NCBI RefSeq assembly: GCF_963921235.1
Contig: NC_086108.1
Span: 90,398,001-90,462,000 of the forward strand
Source: Mobula hypostoma
Taxonomy: Eukaryota
Direction: 5' to 3'
DNA: 64,000 nucleotides
The position numbers and the translations under genes were made by a program. Numbering within the stretch: position 1 is the stretch's first letter; every line of letters begins with the position of its first letter. Under the pieces are notes generated by a model that did no database searches, was not told where the DNA came from, and saw only the letters and a list, made by a program, of their open reading frames with translations. Positions 144-56,970 of this stretch are shown piece by piece.

Positions 144-900
144 AAGATGGCGCTACTGAAGATGTCTGACAGCTTAATGGTAGATCAGAGGAAATATGAC
201 TAAAATATTATTAATAGCACCTTTCTTGAAGTAAATAGTGGTCACCACAGACGATGAAGCACATGGAGGTGAAGCAGATCCAAAAGATGGGCCATGTGGG
301 AGTATCGCAAAGCAGGAACACAACAACATCTTAAAGACATGGCTGCAGTCAATGTTGTTACCGCTGCCTCTGTTGGAGTGAATGATTTGGAGAGCAGTCG
401 ATGCGGAAGAGTTTGAAGCCCGTCTGCCAAACCTGGGTGCGAGGTTGGATCGCTCCAAGCGCGGAGCTGATTTGGTAAGATCGAGAACGACTTCGGGCTT
501 TGCTGCCCAAGCGTGTTGCTGCACCGAGATCCATTTCCTAGAGCAAGGCACTACTCAATGCTTGGACAACTTAAATGCCTGGTCAGGACCCCTGATGAAG
601 GGTCTCGGCCTGAAACGTCGACTGCACCTCTTCCTAGAGATGCTGCCTGGCCTGCTGCATTCACCAGCAACTTTTATGTGTGTTATCTAAAAGCTCAGTC
701 TGGTTTGGAATGCTATCGTTTTCATTTATTGTTTGCATGGTGTGTATGTGTCTTTTTTCCCCTCTTTCTCTGCACAGTGCTTATGGTCTTCCATAGTTTT
801 TAAATTGGGTTCTTTAGGTTTCTTGCTTTGTTGGTGCCTGTAAGCAAACATATCTCAAGGTGTATACTTTGTATATTCTTTGATAATAAATGAACCTTGA
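144..900 (+). mobile_element. Non-autonomous retroposon with AAGATGGCG head and AATAAA/TGAACC tail
   Basis: Starts AAGATGGCG (144-152) and ends GATAATAAATGAACCTTGA. No coherent ORF. It interrupts a minus-strand Rex1-like remnant (1-120 and 900-1180). Confidence 0.45.
591..684 (+). mobile_element. Penelope-like element terminal-repeat fragment with hammerhead core
   Basis: Nearly identical to 52336-52429. Contains CTGATGA-AGG..CCT-GAAACGTC (592-619). Confidence 0.85.
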
Positions 901-1865: not shown

Positions 1866-1901
1866 AGTCGACGTTTCGGGCTGAGACTCTTCGTCAGGAC
1901 T
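1866..1901 (-). ncRNA. Minimal type I hammerhead ribozyme motif (helix II weakened)
   Basis: Minus strand reads AGTC-CTGACGA-AGAGTCTCAGCCC-GAAA-CGTC-GACT. Confidence 0.6.
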
Positions 1902-2770
1902 AACTGAAGGAAGAGCTAGTAAGAGATTTGAAAGGGGGAGGGTGAGATCCAAAATGATAGAAGACAGGAGGGGGAGGGATGAAGCCAAGAGCTGGACAGG
2001 TGATTGGCAAAAGGGATATGAGAGGATCATGGGACAGGAGGCCCAGGGAGAAGGAAGAGGGGGAGTGGGGGGAAAAGCCCAGAGGATGGGCAAGGGGTAT
2101 AGTCAGAGGGACAGAGGGAGAAAAAGGAGAGAGAGAGAGAAAGAATGTGTATATAAAAATAAATAACGGATGGGGTACGAGGGGGAGGTGGGGCATTAGC
2201 GGAAGTTCGAGAAGTCAATGTTCATGCCATCAGGTTGGAGGCTACCCAGACGGAATATAAGACCTGTGCTCTGTCCGCCAGAGAAAGCAGGATCTCCCAG
2301 TGGCCACACATTTTAATTCCACATCCCATTCCCTTCCTGATATGTCTATCCACGGTCTCCTCTACTATAAAGATGAAGCCACAGTCAGGTTGGAGGAACA
2401 ACACCTTATATTCCGCCTGGGTAGCCTCCAACCTGATGGCATGAACATTGACTTCTCTAACTTCCGCTAATGCCCCACCCCCCTCTTGTTCCCCATCCGT
2501 TATTTTTTTATATACACACATTCTTTCTCTCACTCTCCTTTTTCTCCTTCTGTCCCTCTCACTATACCCCTTGATCATCCTCTGGGTTTTTCCCCCCCTC
2601 CCCCTTTTCCTTCTCCCTGGGCCTCCTCTCCCATGATCCTCTCATATCCCTTTTGCCAATCACCTGTCCAGCTCTTAGCTCCATCCCTCCCCCTCCTGTC
2701 TTCTCCTATCATTTTGGATCACCCCCTCACCCTCCCACTTCCAAATCTCTTACTAGCTCTTCCTTCAGTT

Positions 2771-2806
2771 AGTCCTGACGAAGGGTCTCGGCCCGAAATG
2801 TAGACT
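2771..2806 (+). ncRNA. Minimal type I hammerhead ribozyme motif (variant)
   Basis: AGTC-CTGACGA-AGGGTCTCGGCCC-GAAA-TGTA-GACT. Helix I is AGTC/GACT; helix III is altered. Confidence 0.6.
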
Positions 2807-3139
2807 GTACCCCTTCCTAGAGATGCTGCCTGGCCTGCTGCGTTCACCAGCAACTTTGTGTGTGGCTAATCTATTATCTTTTTTGTTCTGGCAAGTCAGA
2901 ATAATCAGCACCCAAGTGGTCAGCTGAAACAAATCCCAGGGTGAATTTTACTGATCATTGTCCCAATCAGGGATTAAATTGTTCATGGTTAAACTATTTA
3001 AATAGTTGTACTGGCGAGTGTGAGTTTGTATTGAGTTTTGAGGTTGGTGTATTTTTACTGAATATAAAGTTATTCTGAATTCCAGTTTATTCTATTGTCT
3101 GGCTTTGGGTCTTATCAATAGTTATAGGTGAGAGAACAC

Positions 3140-3605
3140 AAAACCTTGAGAATGAAAGGGTTATCATGAGGAACATTTGATAGCTCTGGGTCTGTACTCA
3201 CTGGAATTTAGAAGGATGAGGGGGGATCTCATTGAAACATTTTGAATGTTGAAAGGCTGAGAAAGAGTAGATGTGGAAAGGAGGTTTCCCATGGTGGGGG
3301 TGTCTAGACAAGAGGGCATAGCCTCAGGATAGAAGGGTGCCCATTTAAAACACAGATGTGGAGAAATTTCTTTAGCCAAAGGATGGTGAATTTGAGGAAT
3401 TTATTCCCACAGGTAGTTGTGGAAGCCAGGTCATTGTGTGTATTTAAGGCAGAGCTTGATAGGTTCTTGATTAGAAATGGCTTCTAAGTTTATGGGATCA
3501 AGGCTGGGAAATTGTGCTGAAGAGGGGTGGAAAAGGATCAGCCATGTTTGAATGGCGGAGCAGACTCGAGGGGCCAAGTGGCCAAATTCTGCTCCTGTGT
3601 CTTGT
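3140..3605 (+). mobile_element. CR1-type LINE 3' end
   Basis: Degenerate LGLYSLEFRRMRGDLIETF coding region and a 3' UTR shared with other CR1 copies in the window. Confidence 0.8.
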
Positions 3606-4029
3606 GTTTTATATTAACCAGGAAGATGTGCACCCTCCACACAGACACCACCAAAAGTCAGAATTGAAGCTGGTCACTGTAACTCTGCACTTTCTAAGGA
3701 GTTGCCCAGATGGACTTGAACTATTGTGCTTGTCTTATGTGTTCATGCTGATATTGATATTTTTTCCAAGTACTAAACAGATTAGACAATATGGGGATTT
3801 TGTGAATATACTGGCATGAGGAAAAAATCTTACAAGATGGTAGACAGGTCTCACATCCTCCACCTTCTTGCATTCTTTTGCTCTTGGCGTTATGCTGGTC
3901 CACATGCTCTGTTTCTCAGTTATCACTTAATCTATCCCAAATTTATCCAATTTTGTACAATGATAACACTACACTATCTGTTGAAAGTTGTCTTTGCTTG
4001 TACAAGCTTTTTAAGATTTCAGTGAATGC

Positions 4030-4370
4030 TTGTAGGAGTAGATATATTGAAAGATTTGGATACAGTAGATGTGCAGAAGATGTTTTCAGTAGTGGAAGAG
4101 TCTAGGTCCAGAGGGTGCAGCCTCAGAACGGAAGAGCATCCTTTCAAAAGTGAGTTGGAATTTTTTTAGACAGAGTGTGGCGAATCTGTGTTATTCGTTG
4201 CCACAGATAGCTGTAGAGGCCAAGTCATTGGATATATTTAGAGCAAAGGTTGATAGGTTCTTGATTAGTTATGAGGAAAAGGCAGAAGAATGTGTTTGAA
4301 GGGGAAAATAAATCAGCCATGATGGAATGGGAGAGTTAAATGGCCTAATTTTGCTTCTACAATGTATATC
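4030..4370 (+). mobile_element. CR1-type LINE 3' end (older)
   Basis: Homologous to 3240-3600 and 12000-12360. Confidence 0.7.
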
Positions 4371-4839
4371 TTATTTGATTATCTGTAACAGTGAATGAAC
4401 CACTTTTGATGTTGAACACTGAGGTCCCCTTCTAAATGTAAATTTTAAGTTGTTGCTCCCTCATTGCATCTGGATGGAGGTTCATCGATCCATTAGCTGG
4501 GCTAAGGTGGTAATTAGTGGGGGCAGGAGATGCTGGATGTTGAGCCATGAGATATTATAGACTGTCAACTCCCTACACCATTCATTACCAAATTTACACC
4601 AGTGAGTCTGTCTTTTAAATGGGAGGGAACACAGACAAGCACTAAGGCTGAAGTTTTGAATCCAGTTTAAGTGATTACATTTGTGTTGGTCTATTGCTTG
4701 AATTGTCCTTGTCACAGCTCTCAGAATTTTGAGAATCCCCAGGTATTAATTAGGACGAATTTGCAGGGCTAACTGGACTGTGTGAGCTCTTGTCTTCTCT
4801 AGTGACTAGATAAAGCATTATTTTAATTTTTCCCAGTAC

Positions 4840-5080
4840 TTTGACGTAACTGGACAATTCAAAGGGGGATTTCAGAGTCATCATATTACTCAGTAAGTGT
4901 AAGGATGACAGGTTTCCTTCACCAAATTACTGATGCTAGTAAAATACTTGGGTTTTTATGACCTATCTGGTAGTTTTGTTTTAATTAATTGAATTTAAAC
5001 TGTTCAACTGTGACAGAGGGACTTGAATTTGTGTGCCTGGTTTATCAATTCAGCACTCTGTTTTACTTTATTTGCACAAG
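4840..5080 (-). mobile_element. Ancient LF-SINE-like remnant (tentative)
   Basis: Segments GTAAGGATGACAGGTTTCCTTC, GGGTTTTTATGAC..TCTGGTAGTTT and AATTGAATTTAAA resemble my recollection of the LF-SINE-type consensus. Confidence 0.3.
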
Positions 5081-5294
5081 ACCATAATAGCAAGTTGAAT
5101 TTACAATGTACCTTGCAAATATGAAAGTGTTGCTTACCTATTAAGAGATATAAAAATGGATAACTAACCAGAAAGTCATAATAATTAAACCTTCAGAAAA
5201 GAGTTAGAAAGAGGCTAACAGATGAAGGTAATGAAGAGACAAAAGCTTGGCAATAAATGCCTTAAAATGTGTAATGGATTGTCATTAATGTAGT

Positions 5295-5765
5295 TCACAG
5301 AGTCATAAAACACTACAGCACAGAAACAGGCCCTTCAGCCCATCTACATCATGCCAAACTATTAATCTGCCTAGTCTCATTGACCTGCGCCTGGACCATA
5401 GCCCTCCCATCCATGTACCTATTAAAATTTATCTTAAATGTTGAAATTGAGCCCACATCCACCGCTTCTGCTAGAAGCTCATTCCACACTCTCACCACCC
5501 TCTGAGTGAAGAAGTTCACCCTCGTTCCCATAAACCATTTCACCTTTCTGCCTTTCGTTTTAGTTTCACCCAACTTCAGTGGGAAAGCCTACTTGTACTT
5601 ACCTTATCTATACCCCTTATAATTTTATATACCTTCTTCAAACCCCCCCTTATTCTCCTGTGCTCCAGAAAATTAAGTCCAAACCCATTCAATCTTTCCC
5701 TATAACTCAGGCCCTCAAGTTCTGGCAACATCCTTGTAAATTTTCCCTGCACGCTTTATCAATTG
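5295..5765 (-). mobile_element. CR1-type LINE 3' end
   Basis: Translation NFFTQRVVRVWNELLAEAV plus a CR1-type 3' UTR. Confidence 0.75.
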
Positions 5766-7270: not shown

Positions 7271-10200
7271 TCAGAACCCTCCATACCCCCCGATCCCTTT
7301 AGCCACAAGGGCCATATCTAACTCCCTCTTAAATATAGCCAATGAACTGGCCTCAACTGTTTCCTGTGGCAGAGAATTCCACAGATTCACCACTCTCTGT
7401 GTGAAGAAGTTTTTCCTAATCTCGGTCCTAAAAGGCTTCCCCTTTATCCTCAAACTGTGACCCCTCGTTCTGAGACTTCCCCAACATCGGGAACAATCTT
7501 CCTGCATCTAGCCTGTCCAATCCCTTTAGGATTTTATATGTTTCAATCGGATCCCCCCTCAATCTTCTAAATTCCAACAAGTATAAGCCTAGTTCATCCA
7601 GTCTTTCATCATATGAAAGTCCTGCCATCCCAGAAATCAATCTGGTGAACCTTCTTTGTACTCCCTCTAAGGCAAGGATTTCTTTCCTCAGATTAGGGGA
7701 CCAAAACTGCACACAATAATCCAGGTGTGGTCTCACCAAGGCCTTGTACAACTGCAGTAGTACCTCCCTGCTCCTGTACTCGAATCCTCTTGCTATAAAT
7801 GCCAGCATACCATTCGCCTTTTTCACTGCCTGCTGTACCTGCATGCCCACTTTCAATGACTGGTGTATAATGACACCCAGGTCTCGTTGCACCTCCCCTT
7901 TTCCTAATCGGCCACCATTCAGATAATAATCTGTTTTCCGGTTTTTGCCACCAAAGTGGATAACTTCACATTTATCCACATTAAATTGCATCTGCCATGA
8001 ATTTGCCCACTCACCTAACCTATCCAAGTCACCCTGAATCCTCTTAGCATCCTCCTCACAGCTAACACTGCCGCCCAGCTTCGTGTCATCCACAAACTTG
8101 GAGATGCTGCATTTAATTCCCTCATCCAAGTCATTAATATATATTGTAAACAACTGGGGTCCCATCACTGAGCCTTGTGGTGCCCCACTAGTCACTGCCT
8201 GCCATTCTGAAAAGGTCCCATTTATTCCCACTCTTTGCTTCCTGTCTGCCAACCAATTCTCTATCCACATCAATACCTTACCCCCAATACTGTGTGCTTT
8301 AAGTTTGCACACTAATCTCCTGTGTGGGACCTTGTCAAAAGCCTTTTGAAACTCTAAATATACCACATCCACTGGTTCTCCCCTATCCACTCTACTAGTT
8401 ACATCCTCAAAAAATTCTATGAGATTCGTCAGGCATGATTTTCCTTTCACAAATCCATGCTGACTTTGTCCGATGATTTCACCGCTTTCCAAATGTGCTG
8501 TTATCACATCTTTGATAACTGACTCTAGCAGTTTCCCCACCACCGATGTTAGGCTAACCGGTCTATAATTCCCTGGTTTCTCTCTCCCTCCTTTTTTAAA
8601 AAGTGAGGTTATGTTAGCCACCCTCCAATCCTCAGGAACTAGTCCAGAATCTAAAGAGTTTTGAAAAATTATCACTAATGCATCCACTATTTCTTGGGCT
8701 ACTTCCTTAAGCACTCTGGGATGCAGAACATCTGGCCCTGGGGATTTATCTGCCTTTAATCCCTTCAATTTACCTAACACCACTTCCCTACTAATATGTA
8801 TTTCCCTCAGTTCCTCCATCTCACTGGACCCTCTGTCCCCTACTATTTCTGGAAGATTATTTATGTCCTCCTTAGTGAAGACAGAACCAAAGTAATTATT
8901 CAATTGGTCTGCCATGTCCTTGCTCCCCATAATCAATTCACCTGTTTCTGTCTGTAGGGGACCTACATTTGTCTTAACCAATCTTTTTCTTTTCACATAT
9001 CTATAAAAGCTTTTATAGTCAGTTTTTATGTTCCCTGCCAGTTTTCTCTCATAATCTGTTTTCCCCTTCCTAATTAAGCCCTTTGTCCTCTTCTGCTGAA
9101 CTCTGAATTTCTCCCAGCGCTCAGGTGAGCCACTTTTTCTGGCTAATTTGTATGCTTCTTCTTTGGAATTGATACTATCCCTAATTTCCCATGTCAGCCT
9201 CGGGTGCACTACCTTTCTTGATTTATTCTTTTGCCAAGCTGGGATGAACAATTGTTGCAGTTCATTCATGCGATCTTTAAATGCTTGCCATTGCATATCC
9301 ACCGTCAACCCTTTAAGTGTCATTTGCCAGTCTATCTTAGCTAATTCACGTCTCATACCTTCAAAGTTCCCCTTCTTTAAGTTCAGAACCTTTGTTTCTG
9401 AATTAACTATGTCACTCTCCGTCTTAATGAAGAATTCCACCATATTATGGTCACTCTTACCCAAGGGGCCTCTCACGACAAGATTGCTAATTAACCCTTC
9501 CTCATTGCTCAATACCCAGTCTAGAATAGCCTGCTCTCTGGTTGGTTCCTCGACATGTTGGTTCAAAAAACCATCCCGCATACATTCCAAAAAATCCTCT
9601 TCCTCAGCACCCTTACCAATTTAGTTCATCCAATCTACATGTAGATTGAAGTCACCCATTATAACTGCTGTTCCTTTATTGCACACATTTCTAATTTCCT
9701 GTTTAATACCATCCCCAACCTCACTACTAATGTTAGGTGGCCTGTACACAACTCCCACCAGCGTTTTCTGCCCCTTAGTGTTATGCAGCTCTACCCATAT
9801 CGATTCCACATCCTCCCGGCTTATGTCCTTCTTTTCTATTGCGTTAATCTCCTCTCTAACCAGCAACGCCACCCCACCTCCTTTTCTTTCATGTCTATCC
9901 CTCCTGAATATTGAATATCCCTGAATGTTGAGCTCCCATCCTTGGTCACCCTGGAGCCATGTCTCTGTGATCCCAACTATATCATATTTATTAATAACAA
10001 TCTGCACTTTTAATTCATCCACCTTGTTAGGAATGCTCCTTGCATTGACACACAAAGCCTTCAGGCGCACTTTTACAACTCTCTTAGCCCTTATACAATT
10101 ATGTTGAAAAGTGGCCCTTTTTGATGCTTGCCCTGGATTTGTCGGCCTGCCACTTTTACTTTTCACCTTACTACTTTTTGCTTCTACCCTCATTTTACAC

Positions 10201-10289
10201 CCCTCTGTCTCTCTGCACTGGTTCCCATCCCCTTGTTGTGAATTAACCTCCTCTCGCCTAGCCTCTTTAATTTGATTCCCACCCCCCAA
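7271..10289 (-). pseudogene. CR1 ORF2: APE endonuclease plus reverse transcriptase
   Basis: EN motifs NARSI, GITETWL, GGGVAL, YRPP, MGDFN. RT motifs PGPD, NYRPVSL, QHGF, FQKAFDKV, PQGSVMGP, FVDD. One in-frame stop (9621-9623) and a frameshift near 7470. Confidence 0.95.
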
Positions 10290-10294
10290 CCATT

Positions 10295-11117
10295 CTAGTT
10301 TAAAGTCACCTCAGTAGCCCTCGCTGATCTCCCTGCCAGGATATTAGTCCCCCTAGGATTCAAGTGTAACCCGTCCTTTCTGTACAGGTCACGCCTGCGC
10401 CAAAAGAGGTCCCAATGATCCAAAAACTTGAATCCCTGCCCCCTGCTCCAATCCCTCAGCCACGCATTTATCCTCCACCTCATTGCATTCCTACTCTCAC
10501 TGTTGCATGGCACAGGCAGTAATCCCGAGATTACTACCTTTGCGGTCCTTTTTCTCAACTCCCTTCCTAGCTCCCTATATTCTCCTTTCAGGACCTCTTC
10601 CCTTTTCCTTCCTATGTCATTGGTACCTATAGGTACCACGACCTCTGGCTCCTCACCCTCCCACTTCAGGATATCTTGGACACGATCAGGAATATCCCGG
10701 ACCCTGGCACCAGGGAGGCAAACTACCATCCGGGTCTCTGGACTGCGTCCACAGAATCACCTATCTGACCCCCTTACTATCGAGTCCCCTATTACAACTG
10801 CCCTCCTCTTCCTTGCCCTACCCTTCTGAGCTACAGGGCCGGACTCTGTGCCGGAGGCACGGCCACTGTCGCTTCCCCCAGGTAAGCTGTCCCCCCCAAC
10901 AGTACTCAAACAGGAGTACCTATTGTCAAGGGGCACAGCCACCGGGGTACTCTCTATTACCTGACTCTTACTCTTCTCCTTCCCCCTCCTAACCGTGATC
11001 CACTGGTCTGCCTCCCGTGGCCCCGGTGTGACCACCTGCCTGTAACTCCACTCTATCAACTCCTCACTCTCCCTGACCAGACGAAGGTCATCGAGCTGCA
11101 GCTCCAGTTCCCTTACG
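10295..11117 (-). pseudogene. CR1 ORF1 with SGNH/GDSL esterase domain
   Basis: Motifs VIGDSIVRG, LPGA, IGTND, DGLHLN. One in-frame TGA at 10757-10759 splits the two ORF-track pieces. Confidence 0.9.
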
Positions 11118-11224
11118 ACATATTAGGACAAATTTATTAACAACTATTAAAATGTATTCCAGAATATATTTTATTGACTCCCAAGCCCTCAGGTACAAGG
11201 ATCATATTAAATGATTGACTCAAC

Positions 11225-15974: not shown

Positions 15975-16470
15975 GTGGAAGATAGAATCTGGAGCAAAAA
16001 AAAATAAACTAATGGAAGAACGGTGTGGGTCAAGTGGCTTCTGCAGAGAAGAATTGGTGGTTGACATTTTGGGCTGCCATTGTCTACATCAGGACTGAGA
16101 GGGATGGTAGCCAATGTAACAAAGTCAGTGGAAGGGGTGAGACAGAGGTTGGTAGATGATAGATGGTACCAGGTAATGGAGGAAGACGGGCAGATGGAGC
16201 CAATTAGAGTAGAGGGTAAGGAGTGCTCAGATAGAGCTGGTGACTGATGGGTAGAATCACAAGAAGAAAAGCAGACTGAGCTGAGTGGGAGAGAGGAAGG
16301 GGAGTGTAAAGACAGGCTGGTGGGTGACAGGTGGAACCAGAAAAGAGAGGGATGAAGGACAGAAAAAACTAGATGGGGGAGGGTATAAGAAAAGTGAACC
16401 AAGGGAGAAACAAAATAGGTAAGAGGGTGATGGTGGACCCCTGTGAGTGGGAAAGGTACAAAGGGGGAGC
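15975..16470 (-). mobile_element. Old Penelope-like 3' region
   Basis: Degenerate hammerhead box at ~16060-16097 (minus CAGTCCTGATGTAG..CCCAAAATGTCAAC) followed on the + strand by the purine-rich UTR complement. Confidence 0.6.
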
Positions 16471-19971: not shown

Positions 19972-20560
19972 CATAAACACAAAAGATTCTGCAGAGGCTG
20001 GAAATCCAAGGGAATACACACAAAATGCTGGATGAATTTAGCAGGTCAGGCAGCTTCAATGGAGAGGAATGCAGAGTTGATATTTTGGGCTGAGACCCTT
20101 CATCAGGACGGGGAAGAAAGGGGGAAGAAGCCAGAATATGAAAGTGGGGGGAAGGGGAAGGCAAACAAGATGGAAGATGATGTGAAGCCAGGTGAGGGGG
20201 AAGGTGGGTGGGTGGGGTAGGGGGATGAAGAGAGAAGCTTAGGATATTGATGGGTGGAAAAGATAAAGGGCTGAAGAAGGAAGCTGATAGGAGAGGAGAG
20301 TGGAGCATGGGAGAAAGGGAAGGCGGAGGGGCACCAGTGATGAGCAGGTGAGGAGAGAAGTGGTAAGAAGGGAGCCAGAATTCAAAAAAAGAGGGAAGGG
20401 GAAGAAATTACCAGAAATTGGAAAAAATCGAGTGTTCGTGCCATCAGGGTGCAAACTACCCAGATGGAATATGGGGTGTTGTTCGCCCAACCTGAGAGTG
20501 ACCTCATCATGGCAGTGGAAGAGGCCGTGGACTAACACGTCAGAATTGGAATGGGGAGTA
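19972..20560 (-). mobile_element. Penelope-like element 3' part (older subfamily)
   Basis: Minus translation HGLFHCHDEVTLRLGEQHPIFHLGSLHPDGTN (GIY-YIG C-terminus). CpG-decayed hammerhead box at ~20076-20109. Confidence 0.85.
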
Positions 20561-31329: not shown

Positions 31330-32154
31330 GTAAGCATTTCTTCCTGGGGTTAATCTTTTGTTTCAGTCAGCATTATGACTGAAATACTAAATTATAGAGA
31401 GTATGTACTGGTGTGCCAAAGGCAATGTATATGTTTGGTACAGGATCACAGAAAACTTATCACGCACAACAAATCCATGTGGCCCATAGAGCTTTTGGTG
31501 ATTATTTTTTTTCAGAACAACTCCAGCTAGTCCCACTCTACTGTCTTAAACACAGGAGATTCTGCAGCTGCTGGAGGTCTTGAACAACATACACAAATTG
31601 CTGACGGGACTCAGGAAGTCAGACAGAATCCGTGGAGGGGAATAAACAGTCAATGTCTCAGGCTGAGATCCTTCATCAGGACAAGAAATGAATGGGGGAG
31701 ATGTGGGTGAAGTTAGAATAAGATGGAGGGAGACGGACTACAAGCTGGCAGATGATAGGTGAGAACAGGGCTGGGAGAGGGTGGTGAAGTGAGAAGCTGG
31801 GAGGTGATAGGTAGTAGAGGTAAAGGGATGAAGAAGACATAACCAGCACATCATTCTCTGTAACTTCCATCAACTCTAATAGGATCCTATCAATGAGGAT
31901 ATCTTTCCCTACACTGTCCCTTCTGCTTTCCATGGGGATCACTCTCTAGATGAGTCCCTTGTCCAATCATCGCTCCCCATTGATTTCTCTTCTGCCATTT
32001 ATCCCTGTGAGGATGATGAATGCTACATTTACCACTTAACCTCCTTTCCCACCATCATTCAGGGACCCAAGCAGTCCTCACAGGTGAGGCAACATTTCAC
32101 CTGTAAGTCTGTCGAAGAAATCTATTCAATTGGTGCCCAAGTGCAGCCACATCT

Positions 32155-39884: not shown

Positions 39885-40400
39885 TAAACACGAGTTTCTG
39901 CAAATATTGGAATTCTTGAGCAACACACACGAAATGCTGGAGGAACTCAGTAGGCCAGGCAGCATCTATGGAGAGGATTTAAAAGTCAATGTTTTGGCCA
40001 GATCCGTCTGATGAAGGTGTCTGCCCAAAACATTGAGTGTTTATTCCCCAATGTAGATGTTGCCTGACCTGTTGAGTTCCTTCCATATTTTATGTGTGTT
40101 GTCTGATTGATAACTTACCAAGTTCTGATGGACAGTCTCTGCTCAAAATGTCGACTGTTTATTCTTCTCCATAGATGCTGTCTGATTTATTGAGTTCCTC
40201 CAACATCTTGTATGTGTTTCATGGGGAACTGCACTGCACTTCAAATTATTCCAAGAAACAACACTTCAGTGCTTCCACAAACGAGAAAATCTGCAGATGT
40301 TGGAAATCCAAGCAACACACACAAAATGCTGGAGGAACTCATCAGTCCAGGCAGCATCTATGGAAAAGAGTACAGTTGAAGTTTCGAACCGAGACCCTTC
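39885..40400. mobile_element. Cluster of Penelope-like terminal repeats (minus, plus, plus, minus)
   Basis: Inverted pair ~39921-40001 / 40020-40101, a second plus copy 40121-40218 and a minus copy 40277-40400. Hammerhead boxes are decayed. Confidence 0.75.
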
Positions 40401-40851
40401 AGGCGGACTTTAGTGCTTCTCCCATTTTGCCAGTTCTCTGTCCATACTCAAATGGTGCTTTTTATAATCTACTTTGCATGTCTAGTCTTTTTAACACTAC
40501 ATTATTGGATATCTTTTGACAGTACGACACATCAATTGAATTTACCTTATCAAAAAAATCTTTACTGATTTATTTAAACACGGTTTGCTGTAACCAAGTT
40601 CATACCAGCCATTTCTGTTTAATTCTGCCGTTGATTACCCTTGATAAAACTAAAGAGAAATAGTCATTTATTGCCTTTGTCACAGCTTCTGCCTTCATGA
40701 GAAGCTATCCTTTTTGGTCTCTGATCAATTCGTGTCTCCTGCAGACATGATCAAAAGGTTCAGTTGTTGTTCAGACCAAATATCAGAATGGGGAAGAAAT
40801 GTGATCTATGTGATTTTGGCTGTGGATCTTGATGCCAAACAGTGTGTCTCA

Positions 40852-42825: not shown

Positions 42826-45575
42826 TACCTATCTATATAAATCTTGTTTGAAAGCAGTCGGTCCATATCCTACAATGACTTGGCAATTCAAGTGCTCATC
42901 CAGATGCTTCATAAATAGTGTGGGGATGTCTCGGACTCCCAATACTCATATTCCAGATTTCACCCATCCTCTGGATTCAAGTATTCTTCCTGAAATCCCC
43001 TCTAAATCTCATTATTCCTCCTCAGAATTTCTACCATAGGTTAAAAAAAATCCTACTGTCTACCTAATGTAAACTTCTTATGTTGTTCAAGTCTGTCAGG
43101 TCCCCAGCATATTCAGTATCTCCTCATAACTGAAATTTGTGTACCCTACAACATAGATTGAATCTCCTCTGCGCCTTGACATCTTTCCCAAAGTGTGTTA
43201 TCCAGCAGTGCATATTAAATATTAATGTTTACTAACCTGATTCACCTAATTTAAAGCAAAGGTAAACGCAAGCATATTGGTGCCCATGATATTAAGAAAT
43301 AAGTGCAGAAATTAGTAAGTTGCTCTTCAGCATATCTTCTGTAAAGCAGAGAAGAATCATCGAAACATAGCAGAATCTAATAACCAAGATTTTTATTTCA
43401 GTCAGGAAGAAAGGTCTCAGTCCAAAACATCAACGTAATTCTTTTCCATAGACGCTGCCTGACCTGCTGAGTTCCTCCCACATTTTGTGTGTGTTGCTTT
43501 ATATTTAGGAGATATGATTGAGAAGTTTGCTTAAGATATCGAAGTTGGAATGTGATCAGGAGTTAAGGAAACAAGTTTCAAGCTGCAGGAAAACACCAAT
43601 GGACTTGTTTGGTGGACATAAAAGTGTCAAATGATAGTTATTCCAGTGAAAAGTGTGATAATACTTGTTGGTAAAATAGGCAGAAGAATATACAGAAAAT
43701 TGAGTATAATCAGAAAGATAGAAAATGTGAATTTTGGAGTGAATGTCCAAATACCACGTGATTCAGGGGTAGTTACCACCCTTGCACCATCAGACTCCTG
43801 AACCAAAATGAATAACTTACTTACTCCACTTCCTCCCTCCCTCCCTCCCTGCCTCTTTTGTTTTTCTTTGTATTTGCACAGTTTGTCTCCTTGGCTGTTT
43901 GTCGCTCCTTGCTTGTGTGCAGCTTTTCATTGATTTTACTGTATTTCTTGGTTCTGTTGTGGATGCTCGCAATAAAATGAACCTCAGGGTAGTACAATAT
44001 TAACATTGCTAGTAAATTTATTTTGATCTTTGAACTTAGAAAGCACTTTCTGAGGGCAAAATAGGCAGAAGAATACATAGAAAATTGAGTCCATCAGAAA
44101 GATTAAAAACCAGGAATTTTGGATTGAATGTCCGGAGATCCCTAAAAGTGGGGCAAGGCAGGTAGATTAAGAGATAGAGAGACAAATGAATTTGCATTTG
44201 TGCGCCAGAGCATAAACGCGGGGATATAAGAGACTAATGGCTTAAGTACAGTGTACTGTTCTAGTTACCATACTTCAGAGCAGATATAATCATATGGGAT
44301 GGGATCTAGAGGAGATGCACAAAAAACATTGCCAATTACAAAATTATATGGAAGTTTGATTCAGTTAGGGTTTTATCTTTGGAGCAAAGGTGACTGAGAA
44401 GAAAATTAAATAAGAAAATTGAGAAGGAAGGAGCTATTTCCATTGGCAGAGAAGTTGATTGCTAGAGCCATGGAGTTAAATCATTTGCTATAAAGCATTG
44501 AGGGGAGCTGAGAACCTTTTTCTTCATTGAGAGATAATTTTTAAGTGTGGAGTCTTAGATTTTTCAGAAGTTGATTTTTATTGGAAATTTAAAATAAAAA
44601 AATACATAGTTTTGTAATATTATTAACTTGTGCTTCCATCTCTCTTCTCATCTTTACACTTGCATAGAAAATTACAGCACAATACAGACCCTTTGGCCCA
44701 AGATGTTGTGCTGATCTTTTAACCTACTCGAAGATCAATCTTACCCTTCCCTCCTGGATAGCCCATCAATTTTCTATCAACCATATGCTGAGGAGTTTCT
44801 TAAATGCTCCTAATATATCTACCTCTAACACCACCCCTGTCAGGACATTCCACATACCCACCACTCTCTGTGTAAAGAACTTACCTCAGATATCCCCTAT
44901 ACTTTCCTCTAATCACCTGGAAATTATGCACCTTGCATTAGCTATTTCCACCCTGAGAAAAAGTCTCTGAATTTTTCTACCATAGGAAAAAAAGGTCTCT
45001 GATCCTTTAAGTTAATTTTATTTGTGCAACACTTAATTGAATTAACTCTTCCAAATTTACAATTCTTGGTTTGCACTCTGTGCAGCTTGGTATGGATTAT
45101 TAATTAATGTGATTGTTAAGAAAATGCACCATTATTTGTTTTGTGACTGATCCCTGTTGGAAGTTTGCTAGTGGAGCTTTCCAAGTGCACAACCCTGTAA
45201 GAAGTCTCTGGGTGAATATAAACCTAATGAGTTGCTGTGCTGTTTACTTGCTGCGGACTGCAGACTGCAGAATGTTGCTTTGCAGGACAGAAATGACCTT
45301 GATAGATTTCTTACTCTTTTACCTCTGCCTTACCCAAATGAACACTGTGCTACCATGTATTTTATGTGGCAGTCAAGCTGAGAACAGGAGAAACTGATTT
45401 GATGATGTAGCATATCTTATTCATTTAAACTGGAATTGAAATTTGAAAGTCGATAGCTTTAAATTCTGCACAGTACTACATTTAATGCACTGGTTAACAT
45501 GTTGATGATAAATTTCAGTCTATGCTATTATAACTCCGTCGTTAACCTGATTTGTTTTAAATGGATTCTTGACAG

Positions 45576-47463: not shown

Positions 47464-47802
47464 CTGTCCTTCCAGGTGAGGCGACACTTCACCTATGAGT
47501 CGACTGGGGTGATATACTTCGTCCAGTGCTCCCGATGTGGCCTTCTATATACTGGCGAGACCTGACGCAGACTGGGAGACCGCTTTGCTGAACATCTACG
47601 CGCTGTCCGCCAGAGAAAGCAGGATCTCCCAGTGGCCACACATTTTAATTCCACATCCCATTCCCATTCTGACATGTCTATCTGCGGCCTCCTCTACTGT
47701 AAAGATGAAGCCACACTCAGGTTGGAGGAACAACACCTTATATTCCGTCTGGGTAGCCTCCAACCTGATGGCGTGAACATTGACTTCTCTAACTTCCGCT
47801 AA
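47464..47802 (+). pseudogene. GIY-YIG endonuclease domain of a Penelope-like element
   Basis: My translation: GVIYFVQCSRCGLLYTGET*RRLGDRFAEHL..VATHFNS..H..RLEEQHLIFRLGSLQPDGVN, with one TGA (probably from CGA). Confidence 0.9.
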
Positions 47803-48096: not shown

Positions 48097-48133
48097 TAGC
48101 CTGACGAAGGTTCTCGGCCTGAAACGTCGACTG
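48097..48133 (+). ncRNA. Minimal type I hammerhead ribozyme motif
   Basis: CTGACGA (48101-48107), AGGT/GCCT helix II, GAAACGTC (48121-48128). Helix I lacks one base relative to the other copies. Confidence 0.7.
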
Positions 48134-48605: not shown

Positions 48606-51100
48606 CTTTCTTTCTTTTTAAATCTTTTTATTGAATAAGTATACAAAAGGTAAGCCATATAGGTACTAATACACTGTTAGAATATAATAAAATTACAGGA
48701 GATAATAAAACAGAAAAGAAATGATACAAACAATGTAACTTAAACATAAAATAATAAGGTAACATAATAGTATACTAATTTTTTATATATATATATATAT
48801 ATCAATAGAAAAAGGAAAAAAAAAACCCACCGTGCAACTAAACTAAAAGCAAAGCAAAGAAATGGGCTAACTTGGAAACAAGTAGAGTTAAAAGACTTAA
48901 AATCACATCCTCAAACCCGACCTCCATTAAAAACAGTTGGAAAAAAACAAGAAGGGAATATAAATATGGAGCAAAAACGGGAAGAAAGAAAATTACAATA
49001 AATGAAAATATTGAATAAAAGATCTCCAGGTCTGTTCAAATTTAAGTGAGGAATCATAAAGATTGCTTCTAATTTTCTCCAAATTCAAGCATAATATCGT
49101 CTGAGAAAACCAAAAAAAGGTAGATAGAGCATTAAGCTCTTTCCAATGTTGTAAGATACATCTTTTCGCCATTAAAGTAAGAAATGCAATCATTCTACGG
49201 GCTGAAGGAGAAAGATTACTGGAAATTTTAGGTAATCCAAAGATAGCAGTAATAGGGTGAGGAGAGATATCTATATTCAATACCTTTGAGATAATATTAA
49301 AAATGTCTCTCCAAAAAGTTTCCAGAGTAGGACAAGACCAAAACATATGAGTTAAAGAGGCTATCTGCCCCGGACATCTATCACAAAAAGGATTAATATG
49401 AGAATAAAAATGAGCTAATTTATCTTTGGACATATGTGCTCTATGAACAACTTTAAATTGAATTAGGGAATGTTTAGCACAGATAGAGGAAGTATTGACT
49501 AATTGTAAAATCTGCCCCCAGTCATCCACGGAAATGATAGAGCCCAATTCCTGTTCCCAATCTACCCTAATCTTATCAAATGGAGCTTTCCTAAGTTTCA
49601 TAATAATATCATAAATCATAGCCGATGCACCTTTCTGACATGGATTAAGGTTAATTATAGTATCTAAGATATATGTAGGAGGAAGCATTGGAAAGGAAGA
49701 AAGTATAGTACTTAGGAAATTTCTAACTTGTAGATATCTAAAAAAAATGTATTCTTGATAAATTATATTTATTAGATAATTGTTCAAAAGACATAAGGGA
49801 ACCATCTAAAAATAAATCCAAAAACCGTGAAATACCCTTAGTCTTCCAAATTTGAAAAGCATGATCCGTGAAAGAGGGAGGAAAAAATATGTTACCTAAA
49901 ATAGCTAGCCCAAATTGGTTAAGATCAAAAAATTTTCTGAATTGGAACCAAACACGTAAGGTATATTTAACTATCGGGTTAGAGACCTGTTTGAGGCGTT
50001 TCAAATCAAAAGGAAGAGAGGAACCTAAAATAGAGCCTAGTGTATAGCCCTGAACAGATGGTAATTCCAATGCTACCCATTTAGGAATGGATAGTATATC
50101 CTGGTCAAGTAACCAAAATTTCATATGTCGAATATTAATTGCCCAATAATAGAAACTAAAGTTAGGTAATGCTAAACCTCCATCTCTCTTGGCTTTCTGT
50201 AAATGTATTTTACCCAGTCTCAGGTTTTTATTTTGCCAAATAAATGAAGAAATTTTTGAGTCAACTTTATCAAAAAAAGATTTTGGAACAAAAGTTGGTA
50301 ATGCCTGAAATATATATAAAAATTTTGGCAGAAAAAACATCTTAACTGCATTAATACGACTAATCAAAGTTAAATATAATGGAAACTATTTAGATGAAAG
50401 TTGAGTAATATGGTCAATTAAGGGTAAAAAATTAATCTTAAATAAATCTTTGTGTTTACAAGTAATTTTAATCCCAAGATAGGAAAAATAATTATTAATC
50501 AATTTAAACAAAAAGTTGTGATATAAGGGAAGTTGTTTATTAATCGGAAAAAGTTCACTCTTACTAAGATTTAATTTATAACCTGAAAAAAGACTAAATT
50601 GTGCTAATATATCTAAAACAGCAGGGATGGATTTTTGAGGATTAGAAATATATAAAAGTAAATCATCAGCATAGAGTGATATTTTATGGGACTTTAATCC
50701 CCGAGTTATCCCAGTAATATTTGGAGATTCTCGAATGGCAATTGCAAGAGGTTCTAATGCAATATCAAATAATAGGGGACTAAGAGGACAGCCTTGTCGA
50801 GTACCTCGAAAAAGAGGAAAAAAAGGTGAGTTTAAAGAGTTAGTACGGACCGAGGCTACAGGGGAATGATATAACAGTTTAATCCAGGATATAAATTTCA
50901 AGCTAAAGTTAAACATTTCAAGCACCTTAAATAAATAAGGCCATTCTACTCTATCAAAAGCTTTCTCGGCGTCTAAAGAAATAACACACTCAGGAACATT
51001 TTGTGAGGGAGTATAAACGATATTTAACAATGTACGAATATTATAAAAAGAGGACTCTGATTGATATAAGGAAGAATAAAAATCAAAAAAGGTTTGATTA
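48606..51100 (-). mobile_element. L1-like LINE, 5'-truncated, with TSD
   Basis: Motifs LDAEKAFDRVEW, GTRQGCPLSPLLF, YADD, YLGI and the zinc knuckle CDRC..THMFWSC. AATAAA plus A-rich tail. 11-bp TSD AGCAGGATTTT (48595-48605, 51101-51111). Confidence 0.92.
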
Positions 51101-52200
51101 AGCAGGATTTTGCATGAATCAGAGGTCTTTAGATGTAATGAGAGATTGGATAGGCGGAACTTGTTTTTCTTCGAGCAAACGAGACTGAGGAATGAGGAAT
51201 GAGCTGATAGGGTGGTGAATCTGTGGAATTCGTTGCCACAGGTGGCTGTGAAGGACAAGTCATTGGGTATATTTAAGGAGTGGTCGATAGATTCCTGATT
51301 AGTTAAGGCATGAAGGGATACAGGGAAAAGGCTGGAAATTGGGGCTGAGAGGGAAAATGGATCACACATGATGAAATGACAGAGCAGACTCAATGAGCCA
51401 AATGGCCCACTTCTACTCCTATATCTAATGACCTGATAAAATTTTGAGAGATACAGGTAGCGTGGACAGTAAGAATGTTTTTCTCATGGTGAGTTTTTGT
51501 CTAAAGTAGCAGGATTAAGCGGAACAAGAGGAAGTTAGAAGGGGATTTTCTTTAATGAAAAATGGATGATCTCTGATATCTGGAAAGCTGCCTGATGGGA
51601 TGGTGGAGACAGATACACTCAGAGAATTTAAGTCACATCTAGACAGGTACTTGAATAACCAAGGCATAGAATGCTATGGATCTCATGTGAGCCATTGGGA
51701 ATTGTATAGATAAATGCAATGGTCCATTTTTGTGCTTTTTAATTCTATGAATAGTGGTTATATTGCATTTTCTCAAGGAGGCTTTCAGAAGATCCTGTAT
51801 CTTTTTCTGTTCACCTGGTAATCACTTCACATAAAGTTATTGCTTTCATAGCTGCTACCAACCTCCTGAAATGGACTTTGATGCTCTATTGTATTAGCTA
51901 CTGCAGTCAGTTAGCTGTTGACTACCCTCTTTAAGCTGTTCTTCTGGTCTAACAAACAATTTGTTATAGGATAAGAGAAAGTCTGTAGCTGCTGGAAATC
52001 CAAAGCAACAGACACAAAATGCTGGAGGAACTCAGCAGGTCAGGCAGCAACTATAGAAATGAGTAAGTAGTCGACGTCTTGGTTTGAGAACCTTCATCAA
52101 GACTGAGAAAGAAGGGAGAAAATGCCAGAATAAGAAGGTTGGAGGAAGGAAAGAAGGCTAACTGGAAGGTGATAGGTGAAGTAGGGTGGGTGGGAAAGGT

Positions 52201-52430
52201 AAACAACAGGAATTCTGCAGATGCTGGAGATTCAAGCAACACACATAAAAGTTGCTGGTGAACGCAGCAGGCCAGGCAGCATCTCTAGGAAGAGGTGCAG
52301 TCGACGTTTCAGGCCGAGACCCTTCGTCAGTTAGTCCTGACGAAGGGTCTCGGCCTGAAACGTCGACTGCACCTCTTCCTAGAGATGCTGCCTGGCCTGC
52401 TGCGTTCACCAGCAACTTTTATGTGTGTTG
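52201..52430. mobile_element. Young palindromic Penelope-like insertion (94-bp perfect arms)
   Basis: 52237-52330 is the exact reverse complement of 52337-52430, with spacer TTAGTC. TSD GGTGGGAAAGGT (52189-52200, 52431-52442). Confidence 0.95.
52333..52368 (+). ncRNA. Intact minimal type I hammerhead ribozyme motif
   Basis: AGTC | CTGACGA | AGG-GTCTCGG-CCT | GAAA | CGTC | GACT. Predicted cleavage after GUC at 52364. Confidence 0.8.
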
Positions 52431-55400
52431 GGTGGGAAAGGTTAAGGGATGGAGAAAAAGGAATCTGATAGGAGAGGAAAATGGACATAGGAGAAAGGGA
52501 AGGAAGGGGGTACTAAGGGGAAAGTGATGGGCATCGTGGTACGAGTGGAGGCCATGGATCGATATATGGGAATCAGAATTAAAATGTCTGGCCATTGGGA
52601 AACTCTGCTTTTGGCAGATGGAGTAGTGGTGCTTGATGAAGCAGTCCCACAAGTTACGACGGTTACACCAATGTAAAGGAGGCTGCATTAGAAGCACTGG
52701 ACGCAATAGCCGACCCTAGCAGATTTGCAGATGAAGTATTGTATCACTTTTGAGGTCATCTACAAGTCCTAGCTGGCTATTTAGAAACATACCCAAGTCA
52801 TCGGCTATGTTTGAGACAGAGGTTGACAGATTCTTGATTAGTCGGGCCATGAAGGGATATGGGGCAAAGGTGGGAGATTGTGGCTAAGAAGAAAAATAGG
52901 TTAGCCATGATGAAATGGCAGAGCACACTCGATGGGTCAAATCTGCCTAGTTCTGCTCCCGAGTCTTCTTCTGAGGGGGCTCTACGTAAAGAATCAAGCC
53001 CATGTCCAGTCTTGATGTGTGGTACAGTTGGAAAGTCAGATGACTACCAGCATGCACAAATGCAATTCACTGCTCATTTCAGAATCATTAATTCTGCCCT
53101 GATTTTCATATTACCAGTGTAAATTCCCTTATCTGCATTTATAAAGGAATTGCTCATGTAAATGCTGTAATTATAGCTTCTAACAGCACTTCCACAAGAG
53201 AGGGCACAATTATGGTGTGACATGTTTACATTGGCAGTGTCCATTTTAAATCTGGACATGGCTTTGTCTTGTTAAAAGAAAGATAGGAAATGCTTTTTGA
53301 TGTGAAATTTCATAAAATAATTGCTGAGGAGGTGGAGTTGCAGGAAACGTTAGTATGATCGTATAATTAATAGGAGTTCACCACTGAATTGGGTAAAACT
53401 TAAGATTGAAATGTAATTGTAAGTTGAAGGTATAGGCAGACAGAAATGCCATTAATAGAACTCCTAATGAATGTTAGGATACCAGAAGTGTGCTTATTAA
53501 TTAATTATTGCTGTTCCTACAGCTTCTTAACACATAAAACTGTGATCTGAAAGAAGGCCCAAAATGTTATTCCACTTGATGTTAAAAAGCTGAGCTATGA
53601 AACTCCTGGTACAGTTTGAATGATGTGCTGTATTTCAGAATACAATGTAAATAGCTTCTTTTAAATTAATTTTAAGTCAGTTTTGCAAAAAAAAAACATT
53701 TTGGTGATTTAAAAAAAGAATCCAACTAGGGAATGCATTGAAGGTTTTGAGCCTCTGGCTACTGTAATCCTTTGAAACAGCAGCAGCAATTAAATCATTG
53801 GAACTATTGCTATTTCTTTATGAGAAAATAGTGTTATTTTTCATCTGTGTTCCTCTGAAGAGCTATCAAACATATGCATTTAATTGCATTGATATGGAAA
53901 AGAATTATAGTTTTCAAACAATTTTGTTTGTAAAATTCCTGAGAAAAATAATAATATATTCAACATCATTTTTTATTAAAAATACAGTTAAAATTCATGA
54001 AGAATCCAAAGGGTAACAGTTCTGTTCGTCTTAAGCAGACCAAGTAGCCACATACAGATGTAAATTCAAAGCACAACAAAATTGAAGACGCCGTCCTTTA
54101 TAGAACATCCAATTCATTATAGCCATGGTGCAGAGTGAATGTGATTATTGTGGATTGTGTGTAAATCATTTACTTATCAATGATGTAATAGATAAAATTT
54201 AATTGAGAGCTTTGATATATCAGATTAATTCCACAAATAATAAAGTAATGAGTTGGAAAGGTATTCATGAGTGGAGCAAATCCTATGTCTTATGGTTCTT
54301 CATTGTTGGGTGTATATAATGCATGACTAATGAATAAAACATTTGTTATATTCATTAGTTATGCATTTTTATGTAGCTTTAATGAGGACTATTAAAAATG
54401 TGGAGGGCTCATTTATACTCATTAGGTTTCGTGAGCTGCACTCAGTTTCATAGGAATATTCAGTCTGGGATCCCTCTAGCCAGTCTACATCATTTCAGTC
54501 AGTCTGCAAGTTCAAAGAAATAAAATATAACTTTTCCTCTTTATTATGTTCATGATTATACCTTTGGTTATGAAAAGTAGCCTACGTGCTTCCAAACTTT
54601 ACTGACTTTGTGAACCTCTTACTGCTCCATTTCTACTATGAACTTTTTACCATCTTGAAAACCAATTCAGTCAATGAAACTATTGGCGTTCCTTCTTAAT
54701 AATGAAATAAATGGGATGAATTGTTTAGCTGATGGGTATAAGGTTGCATATTGCTATACAACTGCTTCCGCTGACTTTTTGACTCAGTCCTGAATAGATG
54801 AATTTGAGACTCTAACCCCTGCTTCTAGATGTCCCATCAAAGGATAACTCTTTGCTGCATATGCTGTCTCAAACCAAGAATATTGTATGCTTCAATGAGA
54901 TCACCACTCATTTTCTAATGCAAAAGAGTAAAGGCCCAATTAACCTTTCTAATTTTAATATGGTGACGAACTAGATTTGTGTGATGCTTAAAGACATTCA
55001 TTGGACCTCATGACACTATTTAAATATATCCACTGTGTACAAAGGTAATTTTAATATAGGGTTGTACTTCTACATTTACAGTTTAGCAGCTCAGAGCACC
55101 CATATACATTCCTAAATTGACAGGGGGCAATAGAATTTTTTTCAAGCTATAATGAGACATGTTGTTGTAAAAAAAAACACAACCGGGAGTCCTCACTTTA
55201 AATACCTAATGATTTCATTTTATGGCCTACTCTGGGATGTACATCAAGATCATTGCAAATAGATAAATTATTTCATTCAGATTGAGTTTCCATGTAAGGA
55301 GAGCTCTAGAAAACTGGGCATTTTCCATTAGCACAATGAAGGTAATAAGGAATCTGATGTGAGGATTTCAAAATATTTTAGTTTCTGTAAGGTATATAGC

Positions 55401-56151: not shown

Positions 56152-56970
56152 TTTCAAAGGTTCAAAGGTCTAATTTAATGTCAGAGAAATGTATGCAATA
56201 TACATCCTGAAATGCTTTTTCTTCTCGATCATCCATGAAAGCAAAGGAGTGCCCCAAAGAATGAATGAAAGTTAAATGTTTGAACTCCAAAGTCCTCCCC
56301 CCCAGCTCTCCTCCCAGCCGTGCGTAAGCCGCAGCAAGCAACAATCCCCCTCCCCCCACCGGCAAATAAAAAGCATCGGCACCCACCACCGAGCGCTCAA
56401 ATGTGAGCAAAGCAATAGCAAAGACACAGACTTGCAGTTACCCCAAAGACTTCGCGTTTCACCCGGTATTCGACATACCACAGGCTTTCTCTCCCTAATA
56501 AGGGAGAAGTAGGTGTCTCCGTCTTCCCAGTGAGTGGGGAGGCATAACAAACAGCTTTCTGGTTTACGATGTTAAAAGTCGGTTATGTCACTTTTTTCGA
56601 GCTCTGTAGCCAAAAAACTGGGCACACAACTGCAGATATTCCGACTCCTCCGATGACACACGGGTCTCCTGCCGTGACACCGACCCTCGATCCACTGGTC
56701 TCCAGAGCCCCAAGATCTCAGGCTTCCAAATCCGAGCCGGACTCTTAGCCTGAACCTAAGGCATGCTGAACAACGGCTGGTTGTGAAACCCCAAGAGCGG
56801 GTCCCATTCCTGCAAAGAACCGTAGTCAGCGTGTAACTTCAGGTCAGGGTCTTCAAAAGAACCCTGAAAGAGAAAAATAAAAATATTAAAGAAGGAAATA
56901 GAGCTGTTTCCGAAGATGCAAGCAAAGGAGTCGCCGTTTAGCGCCGCCGTTACTCAGCTCTGCCGCCGCT
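56152..56970 (-). mobile_element. Non-autonomous retroposon with (TTTGAACC)-like tail
   Basis: CpG-rich with no credible ORF. TTCAAAGGTTCAAAGG tail at the left end. Inserted into an older LINE 3' tail that resumes at ~56970. Confidence 0.5.

Follow-up and report, generated by a model that had tools for sequence, protein, structure and literature searches.

The window, i.e., the whole 64,000-nucleotide stretch of Mobula hypostoma DNA analyzed here, carries a minimal hammerhead motif (min-HHR) of a Penelope-like element (PLE) within one arm of a young fold-back insertion. The features at and around this focal copy are as follows.

52333..52368, + strand: focal min-HHR, with helix I AGUC/GACU (plus U-G), core CUGACGA and an unpaired A, helix II GGGU/GCCU with a CUCG loop and a G10.1–U11.1 wobble, and GAAA followed by a loop-less ACGU helix III
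52201..52429, no strand: young fold-back insertion of 229 bp, made of two arms of the element's 3' end
52201..52236, − strand: 36-nt 'tail' present on one arm only (compare the two 3' end sites of young copies, 35 nt apart)
52188..52200, no strand: left target-site duplication, 13 bp
52430..52442, no strand: right target-site duplication, 13 bp
52303..52330, − strand: motif of the inverted arm, beginning at C3, with helix I's 5' strand missing
52069..52104, − strand: decayed motif in the older Penelope-like copy whose pseudo-LTR received the fold-back, with a weak endonuclease remnant at 52661–52750 (−)

The focal motif reads AGTC CTGACGA A GGGT CTCG GCCT GAAA CG TC GACT, with the predicted cut between 52364 and 52365 (after C52364), and includes the hammerhead core CUGANGA ... 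GAAA ... NUH. The 15.2–16.2 segment is palindromic and has no loop 3, being ACGU in the focal motif and CG, GC or CCGG in relatives. The unpaired base after A9 is present, and the pair G10.1–C11.1 is G-C in 16 of 17 aligned motifs and G-U in the focal copy. In these 17 motifs, the pair at G10.1 forms throughout, whereas the A-U pair that would close a helix II of AGG/CCU forms in one; that register is rejected in favor of GGGU/GCCY after an unpaired A. A scan of Rfam gave no hammerhead family among five matches at E ≤ 5, as expected for a motif without a helix III loop.

The two arms form a perfect 94-bp inverted repeat (52237–52330 and 52337–52430) around a 6-nt loop, with a predicted energy of −210 kcal/mol (z −29.7), and the hammerhead helices of the focal copy have a predicted probability of 0.000 within it. 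The inverted arm cannot be the cis partner of the focal copy: its motif is on the opposite strand and is missing one side of helix I (the 5' one), and pairing between the arms would lock the focal copy into the 94-bp stem. The folding model thus indicates that the focal copy is likely inert, held in the fold-back. The insertion is nested within an older copy from the same superfamily and shows the traits of endonuclease-bearing (EN+) PLE insertions, namely an inverted 5'-truncated arm, a tail of 30–40 bp at one end and a short target-site duplication; the inverted 5'-truncated fold-back architecture is already described for PLEs in the available part of Craig et al. (2021, PMC8557442). A turn within 30 nt of the core is found in 3,162 strand matches genome-wide, many of them counted on both strands, indicating that such fold-backs are common.

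An edit-distance scan and an iterated profile search together reveal 14 copies in the window that reach the core, two of which (2771 and 52333) are structurally intact. The copies outside the fold-back region, with an associated endonuclease frame, are as follows.

2771..2806, + strand: second intact motif, with G10.1–C11.1, a U-G pair in helix III and a GUA triplet, 303 nt past the end of a GIY-YIG frame
2270..2467, + strand: C-terminal end of that GIY-YIG endonuclease frame, 94% to the full-length ORF
1866..1901, − strand: young copy, mismatched in helix II, that is the inverted partner of the element at 2771
588..623, + strand: young copy, 5'-truncated, helix I broken
48097..48132, + strand: young copy in which helix I has lost 1 nt, located 298 nt past the GIY-YIG frame 47467–47799
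16061..16096, − strand: decayed old copy, ends approximate
20075..20110, − strand: decayed old copy, about 300 nt past a GIY-YIG remnant
31648..31683, − strand: decayed old copy (edit-distance scan and profile)
40003..40038, + strand: decayed old copy (edit-distance scan and profile)
40121..40156, + strand: decayed old copy (edit-distance scan and profile)
40374..40409, − strand: decayed copy (edit-distance scan and profile)
43399..43434, + strand: decayed copy (edit-distance scan and profile)

Chance matches are rare by several controls. The scan gave 11 window matches at ≤10 edits and none at that distance in four simulated windows, 100 shuffles gave no match, and the profile found nothing in the reversed sequence; an 11-edit match at 56929, which the profile did not confirm, was dropped as chance. 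An earlier note on this DNA, made from its letters, had described the focal motif as the hammerhead of a Penelope-like family with about a dozen copies in the window. Its sequence and position for the focal motif hold, and so does the identification, motifs of this kind having already been published (PMC4209133, in part available). All 12 places named in that note were recovered, and the copies at 40374–40409 and 43399–43434 were added. Its class of six near-intact copies shrinks to 2771 and 52333, in which the core and helices I, II and III are all present; helix I is broken in the copies at 52303–52330 (−), 592 and 48101, and helix II in that at 1866 (−). Likewise, a place downstream of a GIY-YIG frame is correct for 2771, 1866 (−), 48097 and 20075 (−), which lie about 300 nt past the end of the frame, but not for the focal copy, whose upstream neighbor is its own inverted arm. 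Its helix II was the AGG/CCT register rejected above.

Repeats in the compared loci match at least 55% of the window. An old fold-back of the same superfamily (39910–40110) turns beside the motif at 40003, with the second direct copy at 40121. Another short fold-back (1208–1345, arms of about 55 bp) is unrelated to the motif and gave a chance Rfam miRNA match. A LINE at 7428–11122 (−) has a 730-aa reverse transcriptase (RT) frame (Pfam RVT_1) with endonuclease-like and esterase-like frames upstream, and several more decayed copies of it are spread across the window. An L1/Tx1-like RT remnant occupies 48993–51483 (−) in three frames (Pfam RVT_1 on 50389–51483).

The central 34-mer of the motif occurs in 36,060 exact copies in the 3.48-Gb genome, and in 62,745 copies if CpG-type changes are allowed. 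Sampling the genome with 140 tiles of 10 kb at even spacing (1.4 Mb) gave 309 profile matches, of which 207 cover the motif and 34 are structurally intact (about 24 per Mb). Of 20 loci chosen for long open frames, seven have an ORF flanked by direct motifs spaced about 3.5 kb; location in both flanking repeats, as in a PLE, applies to the family, and the focal copy itself is a truncated fragment. The full-length copy L027 has a motif at 2012, an ORF at 2104–5232 and a second motif at 5527; the motif thus follows the ORF stop by about 300 nt and precedes the next unit's first ATG by 56 nt. The ORF encodes 1,042 aa with DKG and RT motifs, a CX4CxxC linker (CKRNKCYTC) and, at the C terminus, a GIY-YIG domain whose CCHH residues are CSRC inside the domain and two downstream His. 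Pfam RVT_1 and GIY-YIG matches on this ORF are both under the curated cut-off, and its best named homolog is a bamboo shark protein (73%). This pattern of protein motifs matches that of an endonuclease-bearing PLE of the Neptune/Nematis type. Other frames from the RVT_1 genome search, up to about 1,264 aa and more, were taken for other retroelements and set aside, and no relative was found in the viral contigs searched. In young copies, an ATG shortly past the motif (L027 2048–2200) begins a short upstream frame that is not in phase with the long ORF; read by eye, this ATG appears to be in phase with it in older lineages.

Selection on the RNA fold is visible between lineages and in distant relatives. 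Between the young (52 copies) and old (40 copies) lineages, which are defined by their flanks, the commonest letter differs at two of 36 motif columns (N7 and 11.1) versus 19 of 60 downstream columns (Fisher p 0.002). A small third lineage (five copies) differs from the young one at 4 of 36 motif columns versus 23 of 60 downstream. Upstream, 25 of 35 columns differ, a count that weighs less here owing to the poor alignment of the pyrimidine tract. Seeding by the motif does not explain its presence, since a profile of the flank alone recovers it upstream in 165 of 232 matches at ≤12 edits, a level reached by none of 300 random windows. In contigs of five other organisms, divergent lineages fit the L027 reference only over the motif (5527–5562, with loose ends at 5527 and 5563). 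Within lineages, non-CpG mismatch in the motif versus downstream is 0.128 versus 0.103 (old lineage), 0.040 versus 0.070 (young), and 0.131 versus 0.080 and 0.058 versus 0.060 in two others: inserted copies decay neutrally, the motif about as fast as the flank.

Among 80 metagenome loci of distant relatives (44–55% protein identity), 29 reach the ORF end with enough flank, and nine of these have the motif 101–142 nt past the ORF match; the opposite strand has it in none of the 29, and shuffled windows yield 0.0002 each. The strict descriptor failed in the remaining 20, four of which keep the core. The 17 aligned motifs comprise two from the window, 11 passing the descriptor and four found by core alone; their helices I and II are paired in 85% of cells versus 59% after shuffling, and double-sided changes occur at eight of nine pairs, the covariation being partly circular as 13 of the 17 were picked by a pairing descriptor. 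The helix I/II covariation that the earlier note had asked of genomic copies is seen in distant relatives only, because the helices are invariant within the M. hypostoma genome. Across the 17 motifs, the catalytic core and NUH show little or no variation.

Taken together, the focal motif is a copy of the already described minimal type I hammerhead of PLEs; it is another case of a known kind. By 2014, min-HHRs of PLEs had been described across metazoans, among them fish, coelacanth, Xenopus and reptiles (Cervera and De la Pena, 2014, PMC4209133). In the available part of that paper, a loop-less min-HHR with a palindromic helix III in the PLE pseudo-LTR is expected to need two copies, and a single min-HHR was inactive whereas multimers were weakly active. 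In the available passages on the element of the lizard Anolis carolinensis (PAc; Frangieh et al., 2024, PMC11167929), cleavage by the hammerhead requires protein, mutation of the core does not abolish insertion in vitro, and RNA-seq gave no reads ending at the cut site.

With a probability of about 0.8, we consider that the min-HHR in the pseudo-LTR of this PLE acts as a slow, protein-helped two-copy ribozyme on tandem RNA of the element itself, and that the focal copy is inert. As helix III has no loop, it can form only between two ACGU strands; a single tandem transcript would supply these from its two copies, spaced 3.5 kb, with help from protein. In a nearest-neighbor model without tertiary terms, the active dimer has −11.5 kcal/mol, compared with −11.0 for each separate monomer and −30.3 for the best duplex. 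The active dimer is thus predicted to be less stable than two monomers or the best duplex, suggesting that help is likely needed, and these energies agree less with free pairing than with cleavage assisted by protein, as reported for the anole element (PMC11167929). Dependence on a dimer is consistent with the structure of the motif and with the literature on related motifs. Cleavage might trim precursor RNA to unit-length or circular forms, as an accessory processing step.

Insertion would not need this cleavage. The 3' ends of 46 young copies form two clusters, located 67 nt (15 copies) and 102 nt (21 copies) past the cut, and 40 copies span the cut site, indicating that the templates of insertion were uncut or re-ligated there. 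Reverse transcription would start at these two sites and run through on uncut or re-ligated RNA.

The best surviving alternative, which we regard as rather doubtful, is that the motif is kept mainly as a folded cis-element (a protein-binding site, or a transcript start or splice-acceptor region) and that cleavage is vestigial. The 5' ends of young copies cluster away from the cut, 10 of 46 starting 25–45 nt upstream of it (four of these are two paired arms) and one within 5 nt. Variation in the core also favors it. Position 6 of the core is non-A in 2,074 genome matches, with 73 C, 16 G and 11 T among the first 100 listed, and among 155 non-young copies of the tile sample 24 have C versus six G and seven T. 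The C6 lineage makes up about 12% of sampled motif copies (24 of 207), is middle-aged and has intact helices. In the tile sample, C6 is associated with one flank type (15 of 37 versus 7 of 64, p 0.0009), which genome-wide accompanies 1,120 C6 and 1,395 A6 copies, and endonuclease remnants lie upstream on the same strand at eight of 19 C6 loci. In another hammerhead, A6C lowered activity at 0.3 mM Mg2+ about 10^5-fold, from 0.30 to 3.6e-6 per min, with Mn2+ activity spared (PMC7151607, in part available). The cis-element reading is opposed by the near-invariance of the core and NUH in relatives whose helices covary, by the youngest lineage, which keeps A6 in all 52 copies and has no C6, and by the cleavage, with protein, of the homologous anole motif (PMC11167929). 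A cleaving ribozyme therefore remains the preferred reading.

Core variation is not confined to position 6. With a looser pattern, position 9 is non-A as G, C or T in 50, 35 and 15 of the first 100 matches listed, and an old divergent group with C at this position accounts for 12 of the 155 non-young rows (tiles L051, L055, L064, L116, L190, L195, L203 and others). The youngest clade (21 rows) has U11.1 throughout. A tree from flanks only (85 of 118 grouped rows, 112 columns) leaves the forks between young and C6 lineages open and gives no order of descent. Against the preferred reading, the wide spread of C6 and the presence of U11.1 in the youngest clade show tolerance to changes expected to lower activity. 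Given the large C6 lineage and the copies that span the cut, efficient cleavage seems dispensable for spread.

The start of the motif also resembles a splice acceptor, as the AG of helix I is preceded by a pyrimidine tract like that of a 3' splice site, a further point for the cis-element reading. The stretch from the ORF stop to the motif (L027 5229–5528; window 2468–2772) is intron-like. In older lineages, the ORF ends in G-GTAA, followed by 240–300 pyrimidine-rich bases up to a CCAG that supplies, with its AG, the first bases of helix I. In young copies, the GT is missing, and a branch-point-like TACT(A/C)AC and CAG-TTAG are retained. One contig joins L027 5226 to 5527, which is too little to show splicing. 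In Drosophila Penelope, splicing reportedly acts as a switch of hammerhead helix I, and our literature search found no such switch for vertebrate elements. It is possible, though not probable, that a coding A6C lineage of tens of thousands of copies, with intact helices, has spread with a nearly dead or Mn-preferring hammerhead and that the first bases of the motif double as a 3' splice site, so that splicing could switch helix I on or off.

It is unlikely that the motif works in monomeric form, protein contacts or a flanking strand taking the place of helix III. The anole hammerhead was cleaved on a template in the presence of protein, and the available passages leave unstated whether one or two RNAs took part (PMC11167929). 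In opposition, 15.2–16.2 stays self-complementary (CG, GC, CCGG, TATA) in relatives and in the published alignment, as far as available, which only a two-copy helix III explains, and single motifs gave no cleavage (PMC4209133). Least probable is the idea, derived from the earlier note, that dispersed copies pair in cis or trans within host pre-mRNAs and cleave them: although the density of intact copies means that many must lie in transcription units and the motif is present in contigs of sequencing runs guessed to be RNA, within 5 kb in the same tile, none of the 34 intact copies is joined by another intact one on its strand (8 of 34 have one on the opposite strand), inserted motifs decay as fast as their flanks, the focal helices do not form in the fold-back, the window profile matches are without strand bias (8 + and 8 −), and no exon was found by Pfam in 150 of the 169 non-repeat frames of at least 45 aa in the window, a search that would miss short exons, so that the window may still be intronic. 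The two-copy ribozyme acting on the element's own RNA thus accounts best for the data.

Compared with the metazoan min-HHRs in the available part of PMC4209133, the motif has the same core CUGANGA/GAAA/NUH, a short helix I, the unpaired base between 9 and 10.1, G at 10.1, the loop-less palindromic 15.2–16.2, the pseudo-LTR position and mostly solo or inverted copies. It differs in having a helix II of 4 bp. G10.1–U11.1 is also found in cichlid, Xenopus and coelacanth motifs of the alignment published there, in the available part of which neither cartilaginous fish nor a C6 core is seen; the available part of PMC544870 holds nothing on this pair. Exact copies number 36,060 here, compared with about 4,000 and 9,000 descriptor matches in coelacanth and Xenopus (PMC4209133).

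As in the EN+ elements Neptune and Nematis, in the available passages of PMC8557442, there is a single ORF with the DKG motif, RT, a CX2-5CxxC linker and a GIY-YIG with two internal cysteines and two later histidines, and there are partial tandem pseudo-LTRs, an inverted 5'-truncated copy and a 30–40-bp tail; placement by protein motifs alone does not tell Neptune from Nematis. PAc, a Poseidon element, likewise has a hammerhead at the pseudo-LTR/ORF junction and two 3' end sites, downstream of the cut, that define a tail, but it belongs to the Penelope/Poseidon clade, lacks the linker zinc finger and has an ORF starting inside helix II, unlike the ATG downstream of the motif here (PMC11167929, in part available).

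Non-LTR retrozymes have a type I hammerhead from PLE pseudo-LTRs, and the one cartilaginous fish sampled was positive (bioRxiv 10.64898/2026.07.22.740005, in part available). They are head-to-tail non-coding tandem arrays, whereas the present copies are fragments, truncated or inverted, of a coding element; given the lack of nearby same-strand partners and the inverted focal pair, assignment to this class is rejected. A search for hammerhead ribozymes in cartilaginous fish gave, among the papers listed, shark ecology alone, one for Penelope with stingray gave no paper, and the supplements of the retrozyme preprint may name the family. The natural A6C hammerhead of phage Bcep176 shares the core change of the middle-aged lineage, not of the focal copy; it is phage-borne and monomeric, whereas the C6 lineage here belongs to a high-copy animal retroelement and is known from sequence alone (PMC7151607, in part available). 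A search for hammerheads with an A6C core listed no title on PLEs.

The role of PLE hammerheads is still debated (PMC8557442 and PMC11167929, both in part available). For this question, the M. hypostoma genome is useful material: it has young ORFs that are intact, identical motifs by the tens of thousands and lineages whose core varies naturally (A6C, U11.1), which allow a direct comparison of cleavage rate with transposition success. The copy number also permits a well-powered test of strand bias in introns once genes are annotated.
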